From an uncultured bacterium (GTDB lineage Bacteria > Hydrothermota > Tepidihabitantia > Tepidihabitantales > Tepidihabitantaceae), in NCBI GenBank assembly GCA_937139435.1, contig CAKZPX010000194.1:1-24152 (forward strand): a DNA stretch of 24,152 nt, given 5' to 3'. The position numbers and the translations under genes were made by a program. Positions 5,822-24,152 of this stretch are shown piece after piece (within the stretch, counting starts at the first letter, position 1; each line of letters opens with the position of its first letter). The notes under the pieces are model-generated. The model was not told the DNA's origin and ran no database searches. It worked only from the letters and a program-made list of their open reading frames with translations.

Positions 5822-7938
5822 ATTTCCCTTCCTGGTAAAGGATAGTACTTAATCTCCTGGTATTGCCGGTCAAATAGATTCTTAATGCCCAATATTACTC
5901 TCGGCTGCCATCTCCTTATATTCCAGAAAAGGCGCAGTGGTGCGCAATCAACCTCTACATCCAGCAGCGCATAACCGGGCAGGGTGTCGGAGTTGTCACT
6001 ATTGGTAAACCGCGGTGATACCGCCCTTAACCCCAGTGTTAACCGGGCAATGTTTAAACCCCGGTGTTCAAAGTTTAAACCTGTGCCAATCCTGGTGGTC
6101 AATCTGGGACGATAGGGCAAATCCCGTTCCGAGGGACGGGCCGCACCGGTGTCATTACCGACCGACCGGCACACCTGATATGTGGCGCCGGCATTCAGGT
6201 CCAGAAACCGAAACCGTCCCCGTCCTTCCAGTTCCACACCGGTAATCGTTGCCCGGGCAACATTTACCGGCTGCCAGAAAAACTCTCTAACCTCCTGCCA
6301 TTGAATAAGATTACTCAGCTGGGAACGATACCCACCCAGGCGCACAAACATATCTTCGCCCATATTCAGGGCGACACCACCATCAAAACCGGTTGCCCAT
6401 TCTGGTTCCAGTCTCGGGTTCCCACCGCTCCACCCCGTCTGGGGCCACCACAGCTCATTAAATGTCGGTGCCCGAAAGGAACGGTTGGCACCAAGGTAAA
6501 AACTGATTAAGGAAACCGGGTTAAACACCAGGGTAAATTTGGGACTGAATGCGCCATAGGTGGATGTAATGTCAACCGAATCCGGACCCAAACCGGTATT
6601 GCGCAAAAGGTCATAGCGCAGACCGGCATTTACCGTCCAGCCCCGTCCCTTAAAACTGACCTCCAGAAAGGGGGCATTGCTCCAGCGTCCCGGACCGCCC
6701 ACAGAACTGCTTTTTGCCTCTTCCAGATACGACTCCAATCCGAGATTGGTGCTGAACCAGTCGGCTAACACCAGTAACTGGTTGGCGCTGAAACTGGTCT
6801 GATAAATCTGATGGGTATCATCTTCCGGAAAAAATTCATTCGGGTTGCGGTAGTTCTCCCAGTAGCGCTGATGCCCGAACCGGGCACTCAAATGGGCTTG
6901 GTCGCTCTCCTGCCAGTCGTAACCGATGATTGTTAAAAATCGTTCATCCTTTAAGCGGGCGCTATCACTCAGAAATGTAATCGGTCCTGGTGAACCCCGC
7001 TCCGCCACTGTGAAACCACCGGAAAAAGAGAGATAATGCCTACCCCCCGAACCCAGCCCGCTCCCTATCTTACCGAGGATGTTGCCCCTTTTGATATCCG
7101 CATTCACCCTGATGCGCAGTGAGTCCAGAGTGTCCTGATAGGTAAACCGGTTATCCGCACTCAGAATGCTGCCAGCAAAAAGAAAGTCCACCACACCACC
7201 GAACATCGCACCGGCATTAAGATAGCGCCGGGCACCAGAACCGACCCCGACCGCAACGTTGAAACTAGTGGACTCCGGTGTTGGGGTGATAATATTTATC
7301 ACACCACCAATCGGATTGGCACCATAGAGCGCCGACGCACCGCCGCGCAACACCTCGATCTGCCGGACAAACGCCGGGGTCAACAGGGTCATATCCGCCT
7401 GATTGTTCAGGCTGGAATTGAGCCGGATACCATCAAACAGCACCAGGGTCTGTTCAACCGTTGCCCCGCGCAGGGACACAGTAGTAAGGTTACCGTAATT
7501 GCGCAACTGCACACCGGGCAGGGTGGCGAGGAACCCGCCCGCATCAACATGCCCCCGGCTGCCAAAACCATCTTTTTCTATCAGACTAACCGGTTGTGCT
7601 GCCCCTGGTCGCCTTACCAGTCTGGTGGCGGTACTGGTGACACCGGCAACTGGAATCGCCCGGGGCATAATCAATAAAGTCAACCTTTCCCGCGTCGATA
7701 CATTCGTCCAGGTTCTTGTTTCATAACCGATCCGCCGTGTAACAATCGTCACCTCTTCGGGCAGGGATAGCGCCGCAATCTCCGGCACCTTACCGAGCGA
7801 ATCGGTAAACACCGTCATTCCGACCGGCAGGATTTCCACCTCTACCAAGGCAACCGGCTCGTGACTGATCGCATCTAATACTTTTACCTGAAACGCCCCG
7901 CTCAGGGGCAGGATTAGTATGAGTGAGAACAGGTTCAT
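5794..7938 (-). CDS. btuB: TonB-dependent receptor, probable cobalamin transporter (BtuB-like), with N-terminal carboxypeptidase-regulatory-like domain
   Basis: Signal peptide; plug motifs SLRG...TLVLFDG and IEVLRGGASALYGANPIGGVINIIT; LEPE, NLFD..Y, PGR barrel motifs; terminal Trp; cobalamin riboswitch directly upstream. Confidence 0.85.
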   Translation of the reverse strand: MNLFSLILILPLSGAFQVKVLDAISHEPVALVEVEILPVGMTVFTDSLGKVPEIAALSLPEEVTIVTRRIGYETRTWTNVSTRERLTLLIMPRAIPVAGVTSTATRLVRRPGAAQPVSLIEKDGFGSRGHVDAGGFLATLPGVQLRNYGNLTTVSLRGATVEQTLVLFDGIRLNSSLNNQADMTLLTPAFVRQIEVLRGGASALYGANPIGGVINIITPTPESTSFNVAVGVGSGARRYLNAGAMFGGVVDFLFAGSILSADNRFTYQDTLDSLRIRVNADIKRGNILGKIGSGLGSGGRHYLSFSGGFTVAERGSPGPITFLSDSARLKDERFLTIIGYDWQESDQAHLSARFGHQRYWENYRNPNEFFPEDDTHQIYQTSFSANQLLVLADWFSTNLGLESYLEEAKSSSVGGPGRWSNAPFLEVSFKGRGWTVNAGLRYDLLRNTGLGPDSVDITSTYGAFSPKFTLVFNPVSLISFYLGANRSFRAPTFNELWWPQTGWSGGNPRLEPEWATGFDGGVALNMGEDMFVRLGGYRSQLSNLIQWQEVREFFWQPVNVARATITGVELEGRGRFRFLDLNAGATYQVCRSVGNDTGAARPSERDLPYRPRLTTRIGTGLNFEHRGLNIARLTLGLRAVSPRFTNSDNSDTLPGYALLDVEVDCAPLRLFWNIRRWQPRVILGIKNLFDRQYQEIKYYPLPGREIYFEVGAGW

Positions 7939-11474: not shown

Positions 11475-12028
11475 TGTCTTCAACCCTGCGCCGTTCATTT
11501 GTCTGGACCGCCATCACCGCACTTTTCCTTGACCAGTTAACCAAAATCCTTGTTTACGGCATCACCGGTGGTTTAGAAGGGGGCGCACCCATTCCGTTAA
11601 TTGGCAATCTGCTGAAAATCTCCTACACCACCAACCCGCGCGGTGTCTTTGGTGTCCCGTTTGGTCCCAGGTTTATGCACTTTCTCCTACCCGGACTCGG
11701 TGCCATCCTTGTCCTCTTTTTCGGTTTGCGGACAAAAAGTAACTGGCTTGGCTCCGCCTACGGGCTGATTCTGGGCGGTGCCCTGGGTAATCTTACTGAT
11801 CGGGTTCGGCTCGGTTATGTAATAGACTTTATTGACTTTGAACTCCGTTCCATTCGCTTTCGCTGGTTTACCTTTAATCTGGCGGATGCCTTTATCGTGG
11901 TAGGCGTAATTATGATATTAATCCACGAAATTATCGCCGGGGTAAAAAACCGGCAGCGCAAACTTAAGGAGGTAGCCCAAAATGAAGCGACAGGTTTATC
12001 TGGACAACAACTCAACCACCCCGATTGA
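11474..12028 (+). CDS. lspA: Lipoprotein signal peptidase II
   Basis: LDQLTK, NPRGVFG, GGALGNLTDR, VIDFID, FNLAD; TAATG coupling to the upstream gene. Confidence 0.95.
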   Translation: MSSTLRRSFVWTAITALFLDQLTKILVYGITGGLEGGAPIPLIGNLLKISYTTNPRGVFGVPFGPRFMHFLLPGLGAILVLFFGLRTKSNWLGSAYGLILGGALGNLTDRVRLGYVIDFIDFELRSIRFRWFTFNLADAFIVVGVIMILIHEIIAGVKNRQRKLKEVAQNEATGLSGQQLNHPD

Positions 12029-13154
12029 CCCCCGGGTTCGCGAAGCGATTGAACCCTATCTCACCACCGTTTTTGGCAACCCGTCCAACATTCATTGTTT
12101 TGGTCGGGACGCGGCAGAAGGGATTGCCCAGGCAAGAGAACAGGTTGCGGAACTTATTGGTGCCAAACCCGAGGAGATATTTTTCACCAGCGGTGGCACC
12201 GAGGCAAACAACTGGGCGGTGAAGGGTGTGGCGATCGCCCTGATGCTGGAAAAGGGCAAGCAGATCATCACCACCCCGATTGAACACGCCTCGGTCCTCG
12301 CCAGCGCCCAGTATCTGGAGAGAAACGGCTGGCAGGTAACATATCTACCGGTTGACAGTTACGGGCTGGTTGACCCGGAGGATGTGCGCCGGGCGCTCAC
12401 AAAAGAAACCGCCCTGGTGAGCGTAATGATGGCCAACAACGAGATTGGCACCGTTGAACCGATCAAAGAGATCGCCAGCATCTGCCGTGCTGCCGGTGCC
12501 TACTGCCATACCGATGCGGTGTGTGCGGTGGGCAAGATGAAGGTGGATGTGGCGGAACTGGGTGTTGACCTGTTAACATTTTCCGGACACAAAATCCATG
12601 CGCCCAAGGGTGTGGGGGTACTCTATGTCCGGCAGGGCATCAGTATCCATCCCCTGATTCATGGCGGACATCATGAAAAGGGGATGCGCGCCGGCACAGA
12701 AAACATCATCGGAATTGTTGGCATGGGCAAGGCGTGTGCTATCTTAAAGGACGAATGGCCCGAGCATGCCCGGCGGATGCTTGCCCTGCGCCAGCGTCTG
12801 GAACAGGGTATCCTCTCCCGAATCCCGGACGTCCGGCTCAACGGTCACCCGGAAAAACGTCTGCCCAACACCTGCCACTTTGGTATCGCCTACGTTGAGG
12901 GCGAAGCGCTCCTGATGAACCTCGACCTGGAAGGGATAGCGGTTGCCTCGGGTTCTGCCTGCTCCTCGGGCGAACCAGAACCATCACCCACGGTCAAGGC
13001 GATCAACCTGCCACCGATTATGCGTAATTCGGTGGTTCGTTTCTCGGTCGGTGTGGACAATACCGAAGAGGAGATTGACTACACGATTGATGTCCTGGAG
13101 CGGGTGGTCCGGCGCCTGCGGGAGATATCGCCATTAAAACCATCTCCTGCTTAA
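11982..13154 (+). CDS. iscS: Cysteine desulfurase, group I (IscS/NifS-like)
   Basis: YLDNNSTT, FTSGGTEANN, MMANNEIG, SGHKIHAPKG (PLP Lys), SGSACSS (catalytic Cys); AAGGAGG SD inside lspA. Confidence 0.93.
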   Translation: MKRQVYLDNNSTTPIDPRVREAIEPYLTTVFGNPSNIHCFGRDAAEGIAQAREQVAELIGAKPEEIFFTSGGTEANNWAVKGVAIALMLEKGKQIITTPIEHASVLASAQYLERNGWQVTYLPVDSYGLVDPEDVRRALTKETALVSVMMANNEIGTVEPIKEIASICRAAGAYCHTDAVCAVGKMKVDVAELGVDLLTFSGHKIHAPKGVGVLYVRQGISIHPLIHGGHHEKGMRAGTENIIGIVGMGKACAILKDEWPEHARRMLALRQRLEQGILSRIPDVRLNGHPEKRLPNTCHFGIAYVEGEALLMNLDLEGIAVASGSACSSGEPEPSPTVKAINLPPIMRNSVVRFSVGVDNTEEEIDYTIDVLERVVRRLREISPLKPSPA

Positions 13155-13184
13155 ACCCGCAACCCTGACCGTTGCTCGGGAAAA

Positions 13185-13634
13185 ATGGCAGCCGAGTTTG
13201 TCCCCTATCGGCTCCTGGAACACACCGCTGACCTGAAGGTTGAGATTTACGGTCGCACCCTACCCGAACTGTTCGCCAACGCCGCCCTGATGCTTTTTGA
13301 CACCATGCTCTATCTGGACCGGGTCCAGCCCGGACTGGAACAGGAAATAGAAATCAAATCTCAGGACCTGGAAGAACTGTTCCTGGACTGGCTCCGAGAG
13401 CTCCTCTACCGTTTCTCCACCCGGGGCTTTGTTACCACCCGGACCGAAATCATCAACCTTGACCCGACCGGCGCACAATTAAGGGCAAAGGTCATTGGCG
13501 CTGACTATGACCTGAAAAGGCACGGTTTAAAAATAGAAATCAAAACCCCCACCTATCACCAGTTTCGTTTAGAAAAAACCACCATTGCCGACCGCACACC
13601 CGGATTTAAGGCAACGGTGGTATTTGATGTCTGA
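13185..13634 (+). CDS. Archease
   Basis: LEHTADL, F.NAA..LF, LFLDWL.ELLY, EIKTPTYH, C-terminal FDV. Confidence 0.93.
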   Translation: MAAEFVPYRLLEHTADLKVEIYGRTLPELFANAALMLFDTMLYLDRVQPGLEQEIEIKSQDLEELFLDWLRELLYRFSTRGFVTTRTEIINLDPTGAQLRAKVIGADYDLKRHGLKIEIKTPTYHQFRLEKTTIADRTPGFKATVVFDV

Positions 13635-13642
13635 GCCGAAGG

Positions 13643-16600
13643 TTAAGAAAACAAGGCGGTAAGCTCCCGGAAGATATTTTCTCCGGCAAAGCCTTTTATA
13701 TCAATGGCACCGGAACGACAGTTGGCAGCACAGGCGCCACACCCCTTACAGAGCGCCGGATTGACCACCGCCGCATACCGGCCCTGACGCTCATCAACCA
13801 GTTTCACCTCAATCGCCCGGTAGGCACAGAGATTCTCACACATATGACAGGCAGAACAGCGCTGGGGATTGACCACCGCCTGATAGGGCTCAGCCGCAAC
13901 AAAATCCCGGGATAGGACCGTTACTGCCCGGGCCGAAGCCGCCTGCGCCGAAGCGATTGTCTCATCAATAAATTTAGGATAATGGCACAGACCGGCAAAG
14001 AATACACCATCCGTGGCAAAGTCAACCGGACGCAGTTTCGCATGCGCCTCCAGAAAGAAGCCATCCTGGTGCAATGGCACCTTGAGCATCTTCCCCAGTT
14101 CTCCCGCACCCTCCTGGGCAACAACCCCAGCAGAAAGCACAACCAGCTCCGGCGTCAGTTTTATTGTCGTTTCCAGAACCGGCTCAAAAAATTCTACCTG
14201 CAACCGGTCTCCGGCAAAACTGACCATCGGCTCCTGCTCCGGCGTGTAACGGATAAAAATAACCCCCTTTTCCCTTGCCCGGCGATAGAAATCCTCTTTG
14301 AAACCGTAGGTGCGGATGTCACGATAAAGGATATAAACATCCATCTCCGGATTGATCTCTTTCAGCGCCAAGGCGTTTTTGATCGCCTCAACACAGCAGA
14401 TGCGGGAGCAGTAGGGACGAGCCTCATTTCTGGAACCGGCACACTGAATCATCACCACCGACCTGACCTGACGCAGGCGCTCCGGGGTGCGGGCGATTAT
14501 TTCCTCTAACTCCTTCTGGGTCCTGACCTGCTCTGATTTGCCGTAAAAAAACTCCTCGGGCTGGCGGTAGCGGGCACCGATTGCGAGGATTACCACGCCA
14601 TGCTTTATCCGCTCATTATTACTTAATGTCGTCTCATAAGAGCCAACAAACCCATCAATCTGACGCACGGTTGTGCCGGTAAATACCTTAATCCGCTGAT
14701 GCTCCATCACCCGGCGCACCATCTCTTCCAGTCGCTGCTGGATGTCATCACCCTCTATTGTCCGGTACAGTGTTCGGGCAACCCCGCCCAGTTCCGCTTC
14801 CTTTTCCACCAGGTACACATCAAACCCGGCATCTGCTAACGCCAGCGCTGATGCCATTCCGGCAATACCACCACCAATCACCAGCCCGGCCTTTGTTACC
14901 GGAAGCCGCACCGACACCAGTGGCTCCTGCCGTCGCACCCGGGCAACCGCCATCCGCACCAGTTCCTTTGCCTTTTCCGTTGCCCGGTCGGGATCGTCAT
15001 GCACCCAGGAACACTGGTCACGGATGTTGGTCATGGCAAAAAGATGGGGGTTAAGCCCTGCCTCGGCAACCGTTGCCTGGAAAAGCGGTTCATGGGTGCG
15101 GGGAGAACAGGAGGCAACAACCACCCGGTTGAGCCGGTATTCCTTTATCCGATTCTTTATCTTCTCCAGACTGTCTGCCGAACAGGAATAAAGGTTTTCC
15201 TCTGCAAAAACAACACCGGGCAGTGTCCGGGCTAACTCAACAACCTCGGGCACCCGGACAATACCGCCGATATTAATCCCGCAATGGCAGACAAACACCC
15301 CGATCCGGGGTGCGGTGAAAACCATCGGTGCCACCTCGGTCTGCACATCCGCTATCTTCACCGCATCATAATTCAAGGCACCGGGTAACGCCTTAACCGC
15401 AGCGGCTGATGCCTGAACCACTGTCTCCGGAATGTCCTTTGGTCCCTGCCCGCTGCCGGCAAGGAAAATCCCGTTGCGTCCGGCGCGCACCGGCTCCCAC
15501 AGGTCCGCCTCCGGATAGGAAAATGAGTTGAGCGGTAACCCCAGCCGACGGTTCAAAATCAAAACCTGCTCCGGCGGCACAAAACCGCAGGAAAGAACCA
15601 CCATATGAAACCGCTCCGAGCGCTGTCCCTGTTCCGTGGCATAGCGCAAAAACAGGTCCCGGGTCTCCGGGTCTTCGCGCACCTCTGCCACCCGGGCGTG
15701 CACAAACCTAACACCGTACTGACGTTCGGCCCGTTCAATATAACGGTCAAAGTCCTTACCAAACGCCCGCATGTCCATATAGAAAACTGCGGGCTCAATC
15801 TGCCGGCTGTGTTCTTTCGCAATTACCGCCTCCTTTGTCGCATACATACAGCAGACCGAGGAACAGTATTCCCGACCGATAGACCTATCCCGGGACCCAT
15901 AACATTGAATCCAGGCAATCTTCTTCGGCTCTTTTTTATCACTCGGACGCTGGATATGCCCGCCAAAAGGGCCAGAGGCGGACATAATCCGCTCAAACTC
16001 CAGACTGGTTACCACATTGGGGTAGCGACCGTAACCGTATTCCGGACGCACCGCACCGGACACAACCTCACTACCCGGGGCAATGATAATTGAAGAAACA
16101 GAAAGAGTGATTTCCTCGTCCTTTTCCTCGTAATTAATTGCGCCCGCCTTACAAACCCGGGCACAATTGCCACAGCGGTCCCGGGTAAATTTCAAACAGT
16201 TTGCCCGGTCAATTGCTGGCGCATTGGGCACCGCCTGGGCATAAAGCCGGTATATCGCCCGACGCTGGGAAAATCCGCCCTCAAACTCGTTGGGCAGACG
16301 GACCGGACACTTTTCCAGACAGTCACCACAACCGGTGCATCTGGTCAGGTCAACGGAACGGGCATAACGCTTGAGCTGAACAGTAAAGGCGCCCGGTTCC
16401 CCGGTTACAGACTGCACCTCGGTAATGGTCAAAAGCCGGATGTTCGGATGACGGGCACAGGTAACCAGTTTCGGACTGAGGATGCACATTGAGCAGTCGT
16501 TAGTCGGAAAGGTTTTGTCCAGACGCGCCATATACCCGCCAATTGCTGGCGACCGGTCAACTAAATACACCTGGCACCCGCTATCTGCGAGGTCCAGCGC

Positions 16601-16657
16601 CGCTTGGACACCACCAATCCCGCCGCCAACAACTAAAACCGCCTGCCGATCCTCCAT
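13643..16657 (-). CDS. hdrA: HdrA-family FAD/Fe-S protein with two FAD modules (about 1004 aa)
   Basis: Start moved to ATG 16657 (GAGGGAG SD). GGGIGG...LDKTFPTNDCSMC, inserted ferredoxin, LEFER, CSSVCCMYATK; IGVFVCHCG domain; second GGGIAG and CSRICCVEAIK; C-terminal 2x[4Fe-4S]. Confidence 0.93.
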   Translation of the reverse strand: MEDRQAVLVVGGGIGGVQAALDLADSGCQVYLVDRSPAIGGYMARLDKTFPTNDCSMCILSPKLVTCARHPNIRLLTITEVQSVTGEPGAFTVQLKRYARSVDLTRCTGCGDCLEKCPVRLPNEFEGGFSQRRAIYRLYAQAVPNAPAIDRANCLKFTRDRCGNCARVCKAGAINYEEKDEEITLSVSSIIIAPGSEVVSGAVRPEYGYGRYPNVVTSLEFERIMSASGPFGGHIQRPSDKKEPKKIAWIQCYGSRDRSIGREYCSSVCCMYATKEAVIAKEHSRQIEPAVFYMDMRAFGKDFDRYIERAERQYGVRFVHARVAEVREDPETRDLFLRYATEQGQRSERFHMVVLSCGFVPPEQVLILNRRLGLPLNSFSYPEADLWEPVRAGRNGIFLAGSGQGPKDIPETVVQASAAAVKALPGALNYDAVKIADVQTEVAPMVFTAPRIGVFVCHCGINIGGIVRVPEVVELARTLPGVVFAEENLYSCSADSLEKIKNRIKEYRLNRVVVASCSPRTHEPLFQATVAEAGLNPHLFAMTNIRDQCSWVHDDPDRATEKAKELVRMAVARVRRQEPLVSVRLPVTKAGLVIGGGIAGMASALALADAGFDVYLVEKEAELGGVARTLYRTIEGDDIQQRLEEMVRRVMEHQRIKVFTGTTVRQIDGFVGSYETTLSNNERIKHGVVILAIGARYRQPEEFFYGKSEQVRTQKELEEIIARTPERLRQVRSVVMIQCAGSRNEARPYCSRICCVEAIKNALALKEINPEMDVYILYRDIRTYGFKEDFYRRAREKGVIFIRYTPEQEPMVSFAGDRLQVEFFEPVLETTIKLTPELVVLSAGVVAQEGAGELGKMLKVPLHQDGFFLEAHAKLRPVDFATDGVFFAGLCHYPKFIDETIASAQAASARAVTVLSRDFVAAEPYQAVVNPQRCSACHMCENLCAYRAIEVKLVDERQGRYAAVVNPALCKGCGACAANCRSGAIDIKGFAGENIFRELTALFS
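14999..15028. repeat. 30-bp exact repeat shared by the two large HdrA paralogues, copy 1
   Basis: ATGCACCCAGGAACACTGGTCACGGATGTT, identical at 20357-20386; encodes NIRDQCSWVH. Confidence 0.9.
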
Positions 16658-16659
16658 AA

Positions 16660-17331
16660 CTACTCCCTCTTTTCCAGCATCTGTAATGATTCCGGATAGG
16701 AATACCCGTCCGCTATCGCCAGTTCCCTGATTACCTGCATAATCCGGCTGATGCTTACACCCTGAGGACACCGGCTATCACACCGGAAGTGAATGGCACA
16801 GATATCCTTAAACTCATCGGCAAACGCCTCCGCCTTTAACCCCAGGTTGACCTTGCGGATAAACTTGCGCGGGTCTTTAGCCGGATCAAGCAGCGCCTCC
16901 GGACAGACCGCAGTGCAGGAACCACAGATAAAACAGGCGGACAGACCGGGCACCGCCTCCAGCACCTGGCGGCGAAATTCCCGGTCAATCTTCTTTACCT
17001 CCTCAACCGCAGCCTTTTCCTGCTCTCTGATCTTCACCACCGCATTACACACCTCACCGATGTTCACCCCCTGGGGACAGCGGTTAAGACAGGTGGAATG
17101 ATAGGAACAGAGCCAGACAAACTCCGACTTATAAACCTCCTCTTTCATCCCCAGTATCGCCATCCTGATCAACCGCCGGGGATTGTACTTCTCTTCCAGC
17201 CGGCGCACCGGACAGGAAGCGGTACATCCACCACAGGCAAAGCAGTTCATAAAGGTGTTATCACCAAAACGGGCGGCAATCCGTTCCTTGAACTCGGTGT
17301 CCAGCTGATGCAAAATAATTTCTTCTGCCAT
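16660..17331 (-). CDS. Tandem HdrC-like iron-sulfur protein (two repeats, about 223 aa)
   Basis: Start moved to ATG 17331 (GAGGG SD). Each repeat has CxxCxxCxxxCP, a PRxxIR motif, then CxxHxxCxxxCPQGV. Confidence 0.85.
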   Translation of the reverse strand: MAEEIILHQLDTEFKERIAARFGDNTFMNCFACGGCTASCPVRRLEEKYNPRRLIRMAILGMKEEVYKSEFVWLCSYHSTCLNRCPQGVNIGEVCNAVVKIREQEKAAVEEVKKIDREFRRQVLEAVPGLSACFICGSCTAVCPEALLDPAKDPRKFIRKVNLGLKAEAFADEFKDICAIHFRCDSRCPQGVSISRIMQVIRELAIADGYSYPESLQMLEKRE

Positions 17332-17335
17332 TGTC

Positions 17336-18496
17336 TTATCCCTCACCAATCGTAGTGAACTCATCCTCCCGGAAGGTGGTCAGGGGCAAAGGTTCTTCAA
17401 GCGCGCGCCCGGAAAGGTAGCCAAATGCGTTCTGGGCGTTGCGTGATACCTTTTTAAACAGGACGCTTAATCCGATACTTACCGGACAGGAGTCTTCGCA
17501 AATTCCGCACTGAACACAGGAGGTCATCATGTGGTTCATCCGGGTAATGTGGAAAAGCAGGGTACCAGATGGCATCCGCACCATGCCTTTACTCCGGGAG
17601 AACCGGACAAACTCATCCTGGTTCCGGTTGAGGGCATCAGATTCAAAGAAACATTCCCGACAGTAACATACCGGACACACCTTCATACAGTTGTGACAGT
17701 TAAGGCAGTCCGCAAAATATCGGACAACATTCTCCGCGCCCAGCAACCGCTCATCCAGTTCCCTGATTTGTGTCCGGATCGCCTCCTCCCGTGCCCGGCG
17801 CAGTTTGTTAATAAACTCCACCCGCGCTGCCGGTTCATCCTGCCGTGGCTCTAATGGAACAGGAAAGGTCGGGGCAAGGAGCACGGCACCCTTTTCACCG
17901 GCGGTGATGACCAGGAGTTCCTCATCCGGATTCATACCAAGGAATCCAAACATAATGTCAAATACAAGTGGCGCGGGAAATTCACAGAGCTGGCAGGCAT
18001 GACGCAGACGGCTGTCACTGGTATAGGCATCCTGGTTTCTAATAAAGTTGTTATTAAAATCAGAAGCGCCTTCAGCGATCTGGAGGAACTGCGCGGTTTT
18101 GTAGGTTCCAGGACAGTCAATACCAACCAAAACTATCCCATCAAGTGACACCTGTTGCAGTTTAACCAGTTCCACTACCGCCCTTAATTCACAGGGACGC
18201 AGCAGAACGCCAATCTTTGATTTCGCACCCGGGTCCGGAGCAATTTCCGCGATGATTCCTGCTCCATTTATCCCCATAGCGGGCAAAAGCGGTGCGGTCG
18301 CCATTATCTTTTCTGGCGCCGATACAAGCGAGCGGGTTACCGCACCGGTCTTTGATATTGCCGGGACTAAAATGGCATCCAGTTTTTTCTCTTCCAGCCA
18401 GTGGGCAAAAACCTTTTTGAGCGTTGCCTCGGGATCGCTCCCCGGCACCGCCAATTCATAGATTGTCCTGGAACCTGTCTTTACTGTACCATCCAC
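17336..18496 (-). CDS. FdhB/FrhB-family (FlxC-like) iron-sulfur protein, about 386 aa
   Basis: Start moved to GTG 18496 (GGAGG SD, 1 nt after mvhD stop). LRPCELRA, GIDC, RHACQLC, CLNCHNCMKVCPVCYCREC, CVQCGICEDSCP. Confidence 0.8.
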   Translation of the reverse strand: MDGTVKTGSRTIYELAVPGSDPEATLKKVFAHWLEEKKLDAILVPAISKTGAVTRSLVSAPEKIMATAPLLPAMGINGAGIIAEIAPDPGAKSKIGVLLRPCELRAVVELVKLQQVSLDGIVLVGIDCPGTYKTAQFLQIAEGASDFNNNFIRNQDAYTSDSRLRHACQLCEFPAPLVFDIMFGFLGMNPDEELLVITAGEKGAVLLAPTFPVPLEPRQDEPAARVEFINKLRRAREEAIRTQIRELDERLLGAENVVRYFADCLNCHNCMKVCPVCYCRECFFESDALNRNQDEFVRFSRSKGMVRMPSGTLLFHITRMNHMMTSCVQCGICEDSCPVSIGLSVLFKKVSRNAQNAFGYLSGRALEEPLPLTTFREDEFTTIGEG

Positions 18497-18497
18497 G

Positions 18498-18917
18498 CTA
18501 CACCTCCCAGAGGGTCTTGAACGGGCTCGGCCCTTTTTGCCGGAGTTTCTCGGTGAATTCGGTAACGGTGTCCGCAAACCTCTTGCCCTCGGCTGCTGAT
18601 ATCCAGCGCAAAAGCACCCGGTCAGTATCCAGCCCCAGTGACTCCATGATTGAGTTAAATAACACCATCCGCCGCCGGGTCTTGTAATTGCCGGAAACAT
18701 AATGGCAGTCACCAGGATGACAGCCACCAATGAACACCCCATCCGCTCCCTCCAAAAGCGCCCGGAGAATATAAACCGAATCCACCGCGCCGGAGCACAT
18801 CACCCGGATCGGACGCATATTGGGCGGATACTGCAGCCGGGAGGTTCCAGCAAGGTCAGCACCGGCATATGTACACCAGTTACACAGAAAGCCAATAATC
18901 TTCGGTTCATAAGCCAT
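18498..18917 (-). CDS. mvhD: MvhD/FlxD-type [2Fe-2S] subunit
   Basis: FLCNWCTYAGADLAG, RVMCSG, GCHPGDCHY, WISAAEG; ATG 18917 with AAGGAG SD. Confidence 0.96.
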   Translation of the reverse strand: MAYEPKIIGFLCNWCTYAGADLAGTSRLQYPPNMRPIRVMCSGAVDSVYILRALLEGADGVFIGGCHPGDCHYVSGNYKTRRRMVLFNSIMESLGLDTDRVLLRWISAAEGKRFADTVTEFTEKLRQKGPSPFKTLWEV

Positions 18918-18970
18918 AGCCGTGTCTCCTTTCAAAAAGGACGCCGATAATTTTTATAACTGTTCATCAA

Positions 18971-21900
18971 TTATAACCCTTCTTCAATCATCGTCAGCAA
19001 CTGCCGGGACTCAAAACCCTGAAGTTCAATGGCGCTGGACGGACAGGCAACCGCACAGGCACCGCACCCCTGACAGAGTACCGCCGTAACCTCGCTTTTG
19101 CCGGTCGCCGGATTAATCCGCGCCGCCTCGTACTGACAGATGCGCTCACACACACCACAGCCCGCACACCAGCGGGTATTAACCTTCGCCACCACCGCCT
19201 GGGTAGTAATCTGATTCTGGCTGATAATCTGCGTTGCCCGGGCAGAAGCTGCCAGTGCCTGGGCAATTGTCTCACTGACGAAGCGGGGGCTGTGACACAT
19301 CCCGGCCATAAATATCCCCGCAGTGTTGAAGTCAACCGGACGGAGTTTGGCATGCGCCTCCAGGAAGAAGCCGTCCTCGTTTAACGGCACCTTTAACAGT
19401 TTTGCCAGTTCCTCGTTGCCCGCATCCGGAACAACGCCAGTGGAAAGCACCAGAAGGTCAGGAACCACCACCACCGGTCGTCCGAGTACCGTGTCGTAAG
19501 CCCGGACATAAACCCGGTCGTCTGTCCGCTCCAACCGCAACTGGATTTTTTCATCATCGGGGTCAAAACGGATAAACATCACCCCTGCCTGTCGCGCCTT
19601 TTGATACAACCCCTCCCGGAACCCGTAGGTGCGGATGTCACGGTAGAAGATATAAACCTGACGCCTGGGATTTTCCATTTTTAGCCGGAGGGCATTTTTT
19701 ATCGCCTCGGTGCAACACACCCTTGAACAGTAAGGATGCTCAGCATTGCGTGAACCAACACACTGAATCATCGCTACGGTCTTGATATCCTGAAGGTTTT
19801 CTGGATGCCGTGCCAGTTCCTCTTCCAGTTCGGTCTGGGTTTTAACCATCGGGTCAACACCGTAAAAGAATTCCCTGGGCTCATACGCCTTTGCACCCAC
19901 CGCCACAACAAAGACGCCATGCTGTAATGACATTTCCTCCCCGTTATTAGCAAACCTGAGCGTGGTAGTATAGTTGCCAAGATAGCCGGACACGGCGGTA
20001 ATTCGGGCATTGGTATAAACCTTGATTAACGGCTCCGCCCGTACATCCCGCTCCAGACGGGCAAGTAATTCCGCACCAGAACGCTCCAGCACCGACCCAT
20101 CAAAGTAATCAACAACACTCTGAATCCGCCGGAGATAACCACCAAGTTCCTGTTCCCTCTCAATTAAAAATACCTCAAACCCCTGTCGGGCAATTGCCAG
20201 AGCCGAAGTCATTCCGGCAACACCACCACCGATAACCAGCGCCTTCTGTGTCACTGGCTGAAGAGATGTGGTGAGTGGTTTCAGGCGTCGGGCATTCGCC
20301 ACCGCCATTCGCACCAGTTCCTTCGCCTTTTCCGTTCCCTTTTCCGGCTCCTGCATATGCACCCAGGAACACTGGTCACGGATGTTCGCCATCGTGAACA
20401 GATGCGGGTTAAGTCCGGCTGCGGCAACCGTCTCCTGGAAAAGTGGCTCGTGGGTGCGGGGTGTGCAGGAGGCAACCACAACCCGGTTGAGTCGATACTC
20501 TTCAATAATCCGGCGCATCTTCTCCTGTGTATCCTGGGAACAGGTAAACAGATTCTCTTCCGCATACACAACATCAGGCAGGGTGCGAGCATATTCAACA
20601 ATCTCCGGCACGCTGAGGATTCCACCGATATTAATCCCGCAGTTACAGATAAATACACCGATGCGTGGCGGTTCGCCGGTCACATCCCGCTCCGGTGGCA
20701 GGGTTCTCCTGGTAACCAGCGTCCCCCGTGCCGGGGCAAGAAGCGTCGCTACGCCGGCGGCACAGGCGGTCGCCTCAGTCACAGTTTCCGGAATGTCCTT
20801 GGGTTCGGTAAGCACTCCACAGGCATAAATACCGGGTCGGGTCGTGGCAACCGGATAATCCGGATCAGTAAGGATAAACCCCAGAGAGTCGGTCTTAACC
20901 CCGAGCTGCTGGAGGAGTTCGGTAGTCTTCCTATCCGGCACCAGGGCGCTGGACAAAACAACAAGGTTGTAGGTCTCATCGTGCAGCGTGCCATCCTCAT
21001 CCTCGTAGGTCAGGAGCAGGTCGCCATTCTCCTGAGGCGTGACACGTGATATTCGGGAGCGCCGGTAGACCACGCCATACTCTTTGTGTGCCCGCTCGTA
21101 GTAACCCTCAAAACCCTTTCCAAAACAGCGCATGTCAATATAGTAGATATGGCAGTCAAGATCGCCACCGCAATGCTCTTTGGCGATCACCGCCTCCTTT
21201 GTTGCGAACATGCAGCAAACCGATGAGCAGTAATAGCGATCCTTGTTCCGGGAACCAACACACTGCACCCAGGCGATTTTCCTCGGTTGTGTTCTATCAC
21301 CGGGACGCAGGACATGACCCTGGTATGGTCCGGTTGCCGAGAGGATGCGCTCAAATTCTAAACTGGTAATTATATTCGGCTGCCTTCCATAAAGGTAATC
21401 CCACTCGCCCCTGGGTTTGTATTCAATAAAACCACCCGCTAAAACCACACCGCCAACTTTGATTTCAATCTCCTCCGGCTTATCGGTGTGCTCAATCGCC
21501 CCGGCTTCACAGGCAGCAACACACTGGAGACACTCGGAGCAAACCCCGCAGTCCAGACAGCGCTGGGCTTCCCTAACCGCCTGCTCTTCATCGTAGCCCA
21601 AACTTATCTCCGCCCACGCCGCATCACCAGTTGTTACCGCGCGCTCCCGCTTCGGCTCCGGTTCCCGGGGTCGCTGGATAATATCGCCCCGCCGCTGAGC
21701 GGCAGAGTCCTCCAGTTTCGCCGGTTCTGGTTTCTGTTCCGGACGCCCGGCACTTAAATCCGCACCGGAAAGGAAGCGGTCAATAGAAATTGCCGCCTCA
21801 TGACCGTGAGCCACCGCCTCAATTACCGATGCCGGTCCGGAAACCGCATCACCGCCAGCAAAGACACCAGTGAGTCCATTCACCTCTAATGTTACCGGGT

Positions 21901-23551
21901 CAACTTTAAAAGTTCCACCCGGTCCCCGCTCAATGCCATCAAACCCTTCACCAGCAACCTGCTGTCCGATGGCAAGAATAACGACATCAGCCGGTAACTG
22001 AGTTTTACATTCTGGATTAAACTGCGGGTTAAACCGTCCCTCCGCATCAAACACCTGGTAACACTCAATTAATTCTAAACCGGTTACCCGACCGTTATCG
22101 CCAACAATTTCTTTTGGACCGCGGGAGTTAACAATCTGAATACCATCGGCAAGCGCCTCTTCAATCTCCCATTCATGTGCCGGCATCTCATCCCGTTTCT
22201 CCAGACAGACCATTGTCACCTCACGGGCGCCCAACCGACGGGCACACATTGCGCAGTCCACCGCCACATTACCACCACCAATCACCACCACCCGCCGGGC
22301 ATTCTGCACCAGGGGCAAAGCGATCTCGGACACGCCCTCTCCCGCACCATTCTCCAGCGACTCATTAACCGACCGCAAAAACTCAATCCCGTGTAATACG
22401 CCCTTCAACTCCATCCCCGGGATGTTAATGGTTCTACTCCGATGCGCACCGACAGCCAGAAATACCGCATTAAACCCCTGTTCAAAAAGCCCTTTCAGCT
22501 CCGCAGTGGTATTTATTCGCACACCGGTCTTTAACTCTATCCCGGTGCTCAACAACGCGCTTATTTCCCGGTTCAAAACCGCTCTGGGCAACCGGTAGGC
22601 AGGAATCCCCCAGCGCATCATCCCCCCAGGTTTGTTACTCGCCTCCAGCACAGTAACCTGATACCCTTTCAACCGCAAGTCCAGGGCACAGGTTAACCCT
22701 GCTGGTCCAGCACCCACCACCGCCACCCGTTCCTTTCTCTCCTGTGCCGGTGTTGACCATCCTATCTCTCCACCCTCTCGCTCTATCCAGTCATCAAGAA
22801 ACCGCTTCAATGTCCTGATCGCCACCGGCTGGTCTACCTCCTGCCGGTTACATTTCTCCTCACAGGGGTGATGACACACCCTGCCACACACACCGACAAA
22901 CGGCAACCTTTCCTGCACCAGTTTATAGGCATCCTTAAACTTGCCCTGTCGGATCAGCGCCACATAACCCTGGGCATTTACACCTGCGGGGCAGGCGAGC
23001 CGACACTGTGCCCGCTTCCCGCTCTTATCAATCGCCACCGCATTAGGAATTGCCTGCGGATAAAGTTTATAAACCGCATTACGGGTTGATATCCCCTGAT
23101 TATAACTGTCCGGTACAACCACCGGGCAATTCTTCACACACTCCATACATCCGGTGCATTTATCCAGCAGCACATAACGCGGCTTCTGAAGAATCCGGAC
23201 AGAAAAATTCCCGGGTTCACCTTTCAACTCCAGCAACTCAGCATTGGTAATCAACTGAATGTTGGGATGCCTTCCCGCAGTAACCAGCTTGGGCGCCAGG
23301 ATGCACATTGAACAATCGTTCGTCGGAAATGTTTTGTCCAGCATCGCCATCGTCCCGCCAATCGCTGGCGAACGGTCAAGGAGAAATACCTTAAAACCGC
23401 TCTCAGCCAGTTCCAGGGCGCTCTGAATCCCGGCAATACCAGCACCAACCACCAGCACCGCACCGGTCACCGTGGCACCGGCAGCGGGTCGGGCATTGTT
23501 TCCAGAACCCGCAGTAGTGTGTTCGGTGCTATTTACCGCTTGCTCCTGCAC
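18971..23551 (-). CDS. hdrL: HdrL-type protein: double-FAD HdrA with an inserted GltD-like NAD(P)H oxidoreductase module (1526 aa)
   Basis: Colinear with 13643-16657 plus an insert with CRLACP...CGRVCHHPCEEKC, GAGPAGL, GGGNVAVDCA, FAGGD..SGP; GTG start, AGGAG SD overlapping the upstream stop. Confidence 0.88.
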   Translation of the reverse strand: MQEQAVNSTEHTTAGSGNNARPAAGATVTGAVLVVGAGIAGIQSALELAESGFKVFLLDRSPAIGGTMAMLDKTFPTNDCSMCILAPKLVTAGRHPNIQLITNAELLELKGEPGNFSVRILQKPRYVLLDKCTGCMECVKNCPVVVPDSYNQGISTRNAVYKLYPQAIPNAVAIDKSGKRAQCRLACPAGVNAQGYVALIRQGKFKDAYKLVQERLPFVGVCGRVCHHPCEEKCNRQEVDQPVAIRTLKRFLDDWIEREGGEIGWSTPAQERKERVAVVGAGPAGLTCALDLRLKGYQVTVLEASNKPGGMMRWGIPAYRLPRAVLNREISALLSTGIELKTGVRINTTAELKGLFEQGFNAVFLAVGAHRSRTINIPGMELKGVLHGIEFLRSVNESLENGAGEGVSEIALPLVQNARRVVVIGGGNVAVDCAMCARRLGAREVTMVCLEKRDEMPAHEWEIEEALADGIQIVNSRGPKEIVGDNGRVTGLELIECYQVFDAEGRFNPQFNPECKTQLPADVVILAIGQQVAGEGFDGIERGPGGTFKVDPVTLEVNGLTGVFAGGDAVSGPASVIEAVAHGHEAAISIDRFLSGADLSAGRPEQKPEPAKLEDSAAQRRGDIIQRPREPEPKRERAVTTGDAAWAEISLGYDEEQAVREAQRCLDCGVCSECLQCVAACEAGAIEHTDKPEEIEIKVGGVVLAGGFIEYKPRGEWDYLYGRQPNIITSLEFERILSATGPYQGHVLRPGDRTQPRKIAWVQCVGSRNKDRYYCSSVCCMFATKEAVIAKEHCGGDLDCHIYYIDMRCFGKGFEGYYERAHKEYGVVYRRSRISRVTPQENGDLLLTYEDEDGTLHDETYNLVVLSSALVPDRKTTELLQQLGVKTDSLGFILTDPDYPVATTRPGIYACGVLTEPKDIPETVTEATACAAGVATLLAPARGTLVTRRTLPPERDVTGEPPRIGVFICNCGINIGGILSVPEIVEYARTLPDVVYAEENLFTCSQDTQEKMRRIIEEYRLNRVVVASCTPRTHEPLFQETVAAAGLNPHLFTMANIRDQCSWVHMQEPEKGTEKAKELVRMAVANARRLKPLTTSLQPVTQKALVIGGGVAGMTSALAIARQGFEVFLIEREQELGGYLRRIQSVVDYFDGSVLERSGAELLARLERDVRAEPLIKVYTNARITAVSGYLGNYTTTLRFANNGEEMSLQHGVFVVAVGAKAYEPREFFYGVDPMVKTQTELEEELARHPENLQDIKTVAMIQCVGSRNAEHPYCSRVCCTEAIKNALRLKMENPRRQVYIFYRDIRTYGFREGLYQKARQAGVMFIRFDPDDEKIQLRLERTDDRVYVRAYDTVLGRPVVVVPDLLVLSTGVVPDAGNEELAKLLKVPLNEDGFFLEAHAKLRPVDFNTAGIFMAGMCHSPRFVSETIAQALAASARATQIISQNQITTQAVVAKVNTRWCAGCGVCERICQYEAARINPATGKSEVTAVLCQGCGACAVACPSSAIELQGFESRQLLTMIEEGL
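20357..20386. repeat. 30-bp exact repeat shared by the two large HdrA paralogues, copy 2
   Basis: Identical to 14999-15028. Confidence 0.9.
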
Positions 23552-23563
23552 TGTTACACTCCT

Positions 23564-24152
23564 TTAAGTATCTATCATCTTCAAAAGCGCCTCTTTTGTC
23601 CAATTCTTAACCGTTATCGCTCCGGAAGGACACGCTGCCGAACAGGCACCGCACCCCTCACAGAGCGCACTCTGCACCACCGCCTTACCCAGAACCGGGT
23701 CAACCTTCACCGCCTGATAGGCACAACTCCGCTCGCAGTTACCACAGGCGACGCAAACCTCCTCGTCAACCTGGGCAATCACCGGCTCGTGGAAAAGTTC
23801 GCTTACAGAAAACATCCCCAGAACCTTTGCCCCGGCGGCTGATGCCTGGGCAACCGTCTCCGGAATGTCTTTCGGTCCCTGCCCGGCACCGGCAAGGAAA
23901 AACCCGGCGGTCAGTGTCTCCACCGGTCGCAACTTCGGATGTGCCTCGGTTAAAAACCCGAAACTATCAACCGGTATTTTCAGCCGCCGGGCTAAACTTA
24001 CCCCGTCCGGACTCGGTACTATCGCTCCTGCTAGAACCACCATATCCGTTTCAATCTCCACCTTCTTCCCCGCCAGGGTATCACTCGCCCATACCACCAC
24101 CTTGTCACCGCGCCGGAAGATTTTTGAAACCTTTCCTCGCAGATAGGTTACC
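23564..24152 (-). CDS. hdrA: HdrA-family protein, C-terminal part (5' end outside the window)
   Basis: Frame is open to the window edge (VTYLRGKVSKIFRRGDKVVVW...); EAHPKLRPVET, GAGQGPKDIPETVAQAS, C-terminal 2x[4Fe-4S]. Confidence 0.92.
   Translation of the reverse strand, partial: VTYLRGKVSKIFRRGDKVVVWASDTLAGKKVEIETDMVVLAGAIVPSPDGVSLARRLKIPVDSFGFLTEAHPKLRPVETLTAGFFLAGAGQGPKDIPETVAQASAAGAKVLGMFSVSELFHEPVIAQVDEEVCVACGNCERSCAYQAVKVDPVLGKAVVQSALCEGCGACSAACPSGAITVKNWTKEALLKMIDT

Follow-up and report, generated by a model that had tools for sequence, protein, structure and literature searches.

Six genes at positions 13643-24152 on the minus strand of contig CAKZPX010000194.1 (assembly GCA_937139435.1) probably form the 3' two-thirds of one 12-gene operon for a soluble heterodisulfide reductase (Hdr)-type system of flavin and iron-sulfur proteins that would bifurcate or confurcate electrons. 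We give this reading a probability of about 0.6, and the most likely net role of such a system, in an anaerobic host, would be to balance the NAD(P)H and ferredoxin pools against each other, whichever way the electrons flow. C194, the contig that the window covers from end to end (24,152 nucleotides), is one of 361 contigs in the 1.69-Mb metagenome-assembled genome (MAG), about 90% complete, of an uncultured bacterium of candidate division WOR-3. The six tightly packed open reading frames (ORFs) all gave strong family matches and are listed below in the order of transcription, with one domain of the second gene given separately.

23564..24151, minus strand: hdrA C-terminus, the last 195 codons of a canonical HdrA of 645 amino acids (aa), comprising the end of the flavin adenine dinucleotide (FAD) domain and the C-terminal 2x[4Fe-4S] ferredoxin domain.
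18971..23551, minus strand: hdrL, 1526 aa, a fused double HdrA with a GltD/NfnB-type module inside its inserted ferredoxin domain.
21557..23020, minus strand: GltD/NfnB-like insert of HdrL, about residues 178-665, with a Fer4_20 2x[4Fe-4S] domain, the FAD site GAGPAG and the NAD(P)H site GGGNVA.
18498..18935, minus strand: mvhD, a [2Fe-2S] adaptor with its likely start at ATG 18917; Pfam FlpD match 1.3e-53, VhuD model 5e-40.
17336..18496, minus strand: fdhB' (protein X), 386 aa, GTG start 1 nt past the mvhD stop; an Fe-S, possibly flavin, protein of the FrhB/FdhB family.
16660..17331, minus strand: hdrC2, 223 aa, a tandem HdrC-like protein of two repeats, each with CxxCxxCxxxCP and CxxHxxCxxxCP.
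13643..16657, minus strand: hdrAA, a fused double HdrA of 1004 aa from the likely ATG at 16657, 2 nt past the previous stop.

The genes are separated by 12 nt (hdrA-hdrL), 35 or 53 nt (hdrL-mvhD, depending on the mvhD start chosen), 1 nt (mvhD-fdhB'), 4 nt (fdhB'-hdrC2) and 2 nt (hdrC2-hdrAA), in agreement with a preliminary description of the window that had reported a six-gene cluster with gaps of 1-53 bp. In-frame stop codons are absent from the ORFs, so the proteins carry cysteine and not selenocysteine. No membrane helices were found in the cluster proteins, in which a crude hydropathy scan picked up Rossmann motifs only, and this result and the family matches bear out the earlier view of a soluble cluster with three different HdrA-type proteins. 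It had also been noted that HdrB, a hydrogenase, FdhA and a membrane subunit were missing; none of them was found within the visible part of the cluster (13643-24152), but hdrB and hdrC lie just beyond the contig end, on another contig of the same genome (C352).

The upstream genes were recovered from this genome and from relatives. In a same-genus genome (G003), hdrL is preceded by flxD (mvhD-like), flxC, flxB (Fe-S), flxA (PyrK/NfnA-like), hdrC, hdrB and a 645-aa hdrA, with Pfam matches to NAD_binding_1 plus DHODB_Fe-S_bind, Fer4_22, Fer4, FlpD, Fer4_17, two CCG domains and HdrA. The arrangement is the same in a further same-genus genome (G001), up to its contig end. In the genome that holds the window, contig C311 has flxD, flxC and the beginning of flxB at its end, and C352 carries the end of flxB, flxA, hdrC, hdrB (two CCG domains) and HdrA residues 3-445 before it stops; these Flx and Hdr genes share 66-85% identity with their G003 counterparts. 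The ends of C311 and C352 overlap by 8 nt, and between C352 and the window about five codons (about 15 nt) of hdrA have been lost. On the window side of this gap, the hdrA fragment has 79% identity to residues 451-644 of the same-genus HdrA in pairwise comparison and matches the NCBIfam HdrA models at profile positions 444-648. Read over C311, C352 and C194, the order is flxD-flxC-flxB-flxA-hdrC-hdrB-hdrA-hdrL-mvhD-fdhB'-hdrC2-hdrAA, and in the same-genus genomes these 12 genes are a single array. The lack of HdrB in the window is therefore an artefact of the contig end, and the unit to be considered is the 12-gene array. Directly upstream of flxD, on C311 (about 6470-6500) and in G003 (L026, 8700-8745), stands TGGACA-N18-TATAAT followed by TTTGACTTCA, which is likely to be the promoter of the array. 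No match to a Rex-type operator (TTGTGA..TCACAA) was found upstream of flxD in the organism's own contig or in three relatives.

The flavin sites of the cluster comprise five HdrA-type GxGxxG modules, a GltD FAD site and an NAD(P)H site, as expected from the earlier count of at least five HdrA FAD modules plus a GltD-type FAD. HdrL and HdrAA matched the HdrA models at E 1e-286 (Pfam/NCBIfam) and 4.5e-287, respectively. HdrL is made up of a first thioredoxin reductase (TrxR)-like module with an inserted ferredoxin domain, an N-terminal-type domain, a second TrxR-like module and a C-terminal ferredoxin domain. Pairwise comparison gave a similar layout for HdrAA, where module 1 is a TrxR-like FAD module with an inserted 2x[4Fe-4S] ferredoxin but without the N-terminal domain, residues 451-580 form an HdrA N-terminal-type domain, and FAD module 2, which has no inserted ferredoxin, and a C-terminal ferredoxin domain follow. 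HdrAA is thus a paralogue of HdrL without the insert, with 50% identity to HdrL residues 674-1519 (over 858 residues) and 56% to residues 31-190 (over 167). No protein with several HdrA units was present in the copy of the PDB that was searched.

The diagnostic residues differ between the two halves of each fusion. The canonical HdrA has the CCxxxxK motif, as has every one of the four complete modules in HdrL and HdrAA, whereas in the two fusions the LEFER motif and the xDCxxC pair are confined to the first module, the second modules having ELEE instead. The earlier statement that a Glu/Lys pair is kept in the four complete modules is accordingly only partly right, as it holds for the lysine motif throughout but for LEFER in the first modules only. 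In HdrL, module 1 has C80/C83 and a CC..K at 779, and module 2 a CC..K at 1279 and no Cys pair; the key residues of HdrAA are C55/C58, K275 and K760. BamE of Geobacter metallireducens, whose structure was solved by cryo-electron microscopy, is a fused HdrA dimer in which the first TrxR domain holds the bifurcating FAD (Lys280, Cys59-Cys62) and the second a non-bifurcating one (Gln768) (bioRxiv 10.64898/2026.04.10.717634). Compared by the description in that preprint and not by alignment, HdrAA resembles BamE in architecture, its C55/C58 and K275 lie at nearly the same positions, and K760 stands in the second module where BamE has Gln768. We infer three candidate bifurcating flavins, those of the canonical HdrA and of the first modules of HdrL and HdrAA, because each of them retains the Lys and the pair of cysteines by which the bifurcating FAD of BamE is recognised.

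The insert of HdrL matched Pfam Fer4_20 and Pyr_redox_2, and PRK12771 over residues 178-700 (5e-158). Its best PDB matches were 9bov_A, 9n5u_A (NfnA), 8oh5_C and NfnB (4ylf_B/5jca_L), so that its solved relatives are GltD-type modules that bind NAD(P)H, from NfnA (NfnABC), StnA and NfnB. An entry of NAD(P)H through HdrL, suggested for NAD(H) in the preliminary description, is plausible. The strand of the NAD(P)H site is followed by VCLEKRDEMPA (about residues 440-455; window 22100-22150). At the corresponding site YRR is usual in NADPH-specific GltD/NfnB proteins, and the acidic residue in the HdrL motif might indicate a preference for NADH.

The two small proteins that lie between MvhD and HdrAA have different affinities. 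A profile of FdhB' and 36 homologues matched FdhB chains over their full length (9t1s_M at 5e-51, 8rvu_E and 7bkb_E), and an AF2 model (pLDDT 83) had its best fold matches to 7bkb_E and 8rvu_E, then FrhB, so the label "fdhB-like" given earlier was correct. FdhB' is a distant paralogue of FlxC (25% identity), and no FdhA or ElpA partner gene is found between or beside mvhD and fdhB'. The second protein, HdrC2, matched the HdrC model TIGR03290 (9e-36) in two stretches; it has no CCG domains, no membrane part and no hydrophobic segment outside the cluster motifs. In both repeats CxxHxxCxxxCP replaces the second all-Cys motif, and neither His varies among 33 homologues, archaeal ones included, with identities as low as 43%. 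The motif could be the site of a His-ligated [4Fe-4S] cluster or of a [3Fe-4S] cluster.

The gene set is conserved among relatives. HdrL with a neighbouring double HdrA was matched (E = 0) in all 24 family genomes, partially in two incomplete ones, and close relatives of the window HdrL share 61-70% identity with it. Of 36 genomes of the WOR-3 family, 34 have a full-length tandem HdrC; the other WOR-3 genomes in the sample of 250 all lack it and have single-repeat HdrC only. In every WOR-3 locus examined, all from one family, the order hdrC-hdrB-hdrA-hdrL-mvhD-fdhB'-hdrC2-hdrAA is kept, and the five-gene block from hdrL to hdrAA is never split in loci that span it. The position of flxDCBA varies, being upstream in the genus studied here, directly after hdrAA in L032 and L034, and divergent in L028. 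A Latescibacterota MAG shows the same gene order, with flxDCBA downstream of hdrAA and a single-repeat HdrC-like gene in place of the tandem one.

Outside WOR-3, tandem-HdrC homologues were found in five contexts, and hdrL(-like)-mvhD-fdhB'-hdrC2-hdrAA is kept in each. A metagenome contig and a Thermoplasmatota MAG have mvhD-mvhG-mvhA-hycI after hdrAA, and an Aerophobetes MAG has mvhD and a second FdhB-like gene there; two shorter contigs carry the block up to the contig end and are too short to show what follows. In the Thermoplasmatota MAG (L112, 2414-8444) the hdrL slot is held by NuoE-like and NuoF-like genes and a gene for a 1078-aa Fer2-HdrA fusion, reminiscent of BamGHI. Simpler sets also occur: hdrC-hdrB-hdrL-mvhD in Planctomycetota and Myxococcota, hdrAA-flxDCBA in Bacillota and hdrC-hdrB-hdrAA-flxD-flxC in Actinomycetota.

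The preliminary description had presented the cluster as a candidate new electron-bifurcating complex and had pointed to the upstream contig as the place to look for hdrB/hdrC, Mo/W enzymes or a hydrogenase. What was found there was hdrC, hdrB and flxDCBA, which in part complete complexes that are already known, and the claim of novelty does not stand in that form. First, flxDCBA-hdrCB with the rest of hdrA is a complete Flx-Hdr set, as in FlxABCD-HdrABC (Hdr-Flox) of Desulfovibrio vulgaris (Ramos et al. 2015, as cited in PMC5861303). All seven gene types are present upstream (C311, C352 and the same-genus genomes): an NfnA/PyrK-like FlxA, the Fe-S proteins FlxB and FlxC, an MvhD-like FlxD, HdrA, HdrB with two CCG domains, and HdrC. 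The window genus differs in having the order flxDCBA-hdrCBA followed by five more genes with four more HdrA modules, and its sister genera have flx after hdrAA or non-adjacent.

Second, hdrABC with an FdhB-like gene, mvhD and hdrL corresponds to the HdrABC/HdrL set of Syntrophobacter fumaroxidans (Sfum_0819-0824, PMC5947623) and Desulfobacterium autotrophicum (locus VIII, PMC2702500), which has been seen by proteomics but never purified. The shared features are hdrABC beside a large HdrL (an HdrA with a glutamate synthase-like NAD(P)H domain), MvhD, already described as the partner of HdrL (PMC2702500), an FdhB-like Fe-S protein, solubility and the lack of a catalytic hydrogenase or Fdh subunit. 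In the window array mvhD follows hdrL 35-53 nt downstream, the FdhB-like gene is adjacent and hdrCBA lies immediately upstream. The array adds the tandem His-bearing HdrC-like protein, the second fused HdrA and flxDCBA, and lacks selenocysteine; unlike the hosts of the HdrABC/HdrL sets, the window organism, as far as searched, has no DsrC and is not a sulfate reducer.

Third, fused double HdrA proteins and the NfnB insertion are known from the BamE preprint and from anaerobic methanotrophic archaea (ANME), in which HdrA3/4 are fused, HdrA9-11 carry an NfnB insert and the halves show a complementary pattern of Cys197 and N-terminal domain, also seen in Moorella (PMC9012536). The window proteins share this complementarity and the NfnB-like insertion of about 500 aa in the inserted ferredoxin, and some ANME Hdr clusters likewise have FdhB without FdhA. 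The order of the halves is reversed here, with the Cys-pair half first and the N-domain half second, and the host is bacterial.

The array was also compared with complexes whose defining subunits are well known, and the defining subunits of Bam, Fdh-Hdr and Mvh-Hdr were looked for and not found. With Bam it has in common an MvhD-type adaptor that joins a donor module, and Bam is a precedent for two bifurcation modules per complex; however, the array genus has no BamB/BamC tungsten subunits and no NuoEFG-like BamGHI (none among the 12 genes), HdrB and HdrC are separate and not a BamD-type fusion, and MvhD is short with Cys in place of selenocysteine. Elp-Hdr and Fdh-Hdr (8rvu, 7bkb, 9t1s) share the donor arm of an FdhB-fold protein with MvhD. 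In Elp-Hdr (8rvu), ElpB (an FdhB homologue) and ElpC (an MvhD homologue) pass electrons from F420H2 to HdrA without a working FdhA (PMC12350162), whereas the array has no ElpA or FdhA gene, no CofH was found, and the arm adjoins HdrL and not the canonical HdrA. MvhADG-HdrABC differs in that mvhA and mvhG, which follow hdrAA in two other lineages, are absent from the array in this genus. Similarity of HdrC2 to Qmo is limited to positions 2-108 of the 360-position qmoC model, and the membrane cytochrome b domain is absent.

The single building blocks of the array are all already described, while the block hdrL-mvhD-fdhB'-hdrC2-hdrAA seems to be undescribed. In the literature searched we found neither this five-gene block, with its His-bearing tandem HdrC and second fused HdrA, nor its union with hdrCBA and flx. 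The block with the tandem HdrC is not described in the text of the ANME paper (PMC9012536), a paper on HdrA evolution (bioRxiv 10.1101/2024.09.26.615249) mentions neither fusions nor GltD inserts, and in the WOR-3 genomics paper mvhADG-hdrABC are the only such genes mentioned.

In the proposed scheme, electrons from NAD(P)H would enter at two points, at FlxA, from which they would be passed on via FlxB, FlxC and FlxD, and at the NfnB-like insert of HdrL. Low-potential electrons would leave through the ferredoxin domains to ferredoxin, and high-potential electrons through HdrC and HdrB to an acceptor. MvhD and FlxD would act as adaptors, and FdhB' and the tandem HdrC as wires between modules. 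With fdhB' on one side of its gene and hdrAA on the other, and with no HdrB to go with it, HdrC2 is best read as such a wire, which would presumably connect HdrAA with the unit of FdhB', MvhD and HdrL. In other lineages Mvh genes stand after hdrAA in place of Flx, which suggests that HdrAA receives electrons from an interchangeable donor arm. By analogy with BamD, electron-transferring flavoprotein (ETF) might be the acceptor of HdrB, which we treat as a lead only; ETF genes are present in the organism's own genome, none of them near the array. One non-WOR-3 metagenome contig (that holding P0117) has an ETF alpha gene directly upstream of hdrC-hdrB-hdrA-hdrL, which is of interest because the HdrBC-like BamD reduces ETF in the Bam complex.

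Several observations weigh against the bifurcating system as outlined. flxDCBA is not adjacent to the core in the WOR-3 genera L029, L033 and L073, which means that Flx may be dispensable. In each fused HdrA the second FAD may, on the analogy of BamE, have a structural role only, and the nucleotide could be either NADH or NADPH. A complex prediction for MvhD, FdhB' and HdrC2 scored 0.00, a value that speaks neither for nor against binding. A look-up of public sequencing runs for window positions 16000-20000 listed none. No DsrC family match was found in the organism's own genome (90% complete) or in five relatives (96-98% complete), and DsrC was accordingly rejected as the substrate of HdrB.

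The array might instead encode two or three independent enzymes that share regulation only, namely a Desulfovibrio-like FlxABCD-HdrABC, an HdrL-MvhD-FdhB' NAD(P)H:ferredoxin module and an HdrC2-HdrAA module. We regard this as possible though not favoured. Flx-Hdr and HdrABC/HdrL clusters are separate in other organisms (PMC5947623), and the variable place of flx, non-adjacent in some WOR-3 genera, fits enzymes that work apart. A sigma-70-like site matching at 10 of 12 positions (CTGACG-16-TATAAT, window 18997-18970, minus strand) overlaps the end of hdrL just upstream of mvhD and could be an internal promoter, but over 13100-24152 predicted promoters and terminators are just as numerous as in shuffled sequence, and such sites are at chance level in the region. 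The spacing of 1-4 nt among mvhD, fdhB', hdrC2 and hdrAA and of 12 nt between hdrA and hdrL also speaks against independence, as does the persistence of the block from hdrL to hdrAA, unsplit in the spanning WOR-3 loci and in the five non-WOR-3 contexts. Moreover HdrC2, being without its own HdrB, needs a partner for electron transfer.

A reading in which HdrABC, HdrL and HdrAA form one soluble supercomplex with the HdrA-type bifurcation sites wired in series is tentative and rather unlikely. Here the high-potential exit of HdrAA would lead through the tandem HdrC and FdhB'/MvhD to HdrL, and the NfnB-like module would sit on the low-potential branch of HdrL. Such a particle would carry out multi-stage bifurcation with exchangeable donor arms (Flx, Mvh, NuoEF-like) and without a substrate-converting subunit, and would in principle resemble class II benzoyl-CoA reductase with its coupled modules.

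A role in sulfur metabolism is very unlikely; HdrB would then reduce or oxidise a disulfide or persulfide carried by a protein (DsrC, TusA, DsrE or one that binds lipoate), which is what has been suggested for Flx-Hdr and sHdr systems. DsrC has been proposed as the target of the sulfate-reducer Flx-Hdr and HdrABC/HdrL (PMC5947623), but it is missing from the genomes searched here, and no sulfur-carrier gene lies in or beside the array in any WOR-3 locus examined. Least probable of all is a system driven by formate, H2 or F420H2, in which FdhB', a full-length FdhB/ElpB homologue adjoining MvhD, would dock a distant FdhA or hydrogenase or oxidise F420H2 like ElpB: mvhDGA does follow the same core in other lineages, but a search for an FdhA partner elsewhere found no Molybdopterin family match in the organism's own genome and in the relatives only a weak 542-aa hit (possibly, as a guess, a NuoG-like subunit) beside the single NiFe hydrogenase of the genus, which is encoded elsewhere, the array of this genus has no mvhA or mvhG beside it, and CofH, needed for F420 synthesis, had no match over the cut-off in any of five genomes despite a weak CofE-like match.

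To our knowledge, Hdr-type flavin-based bifurcation has been measured biochemically in few systems only, those of methanogen Hdr, Moorella MetFV-Hdr and Bam, and HdrL has been a genomic orphan since 2009. Three HdrA types occur together naturally in this compact array, which is strongly conserved and whose donor arm is visibly exchangeable between NAD(P)H and H2 according to lineage. The pattern suggests that uncultured anaerobes (WOR-3, Latescibacterota, Aerophobetes, Thermoplasmatota) share a redox-balancing core of general use. The interest of the array would be greater if the three HdrA types formed one serially coupled particle. Bam would then no longer be the only case of bifurcation modules coupled to each other, and the particle, having no selenocysteine, would be tractable for heterologous expression. 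With separate enzymes, on the other hand, the array would be an ordinary variation on Flx-Hdr and HdrABC/HdrL clusters.

Other Hdr-type genes occur in the same genome. Contig C271 (1500-5840) has a second Hdr-type cluster, with a 622-aa GltD-like protein and a 547-aa ORF with two CCG domains, that reaches the contig end at the start of another hdrA, and a third hdrA-mvhD pair is found on contig C168. In the window, the genes that converge on the end of hdrAA (11982-13634) are a NifS/IscS-type cysteine desulfurase (390 aa), a label taken from the ORF's translation, and an archease-like gene (149 aa), so called in the preliminary description, neither label coming from a family search. An ORF of similar size (389 aa) stands at the position in G001 that matches the desulfurase, the correspondence being one of place and size only.

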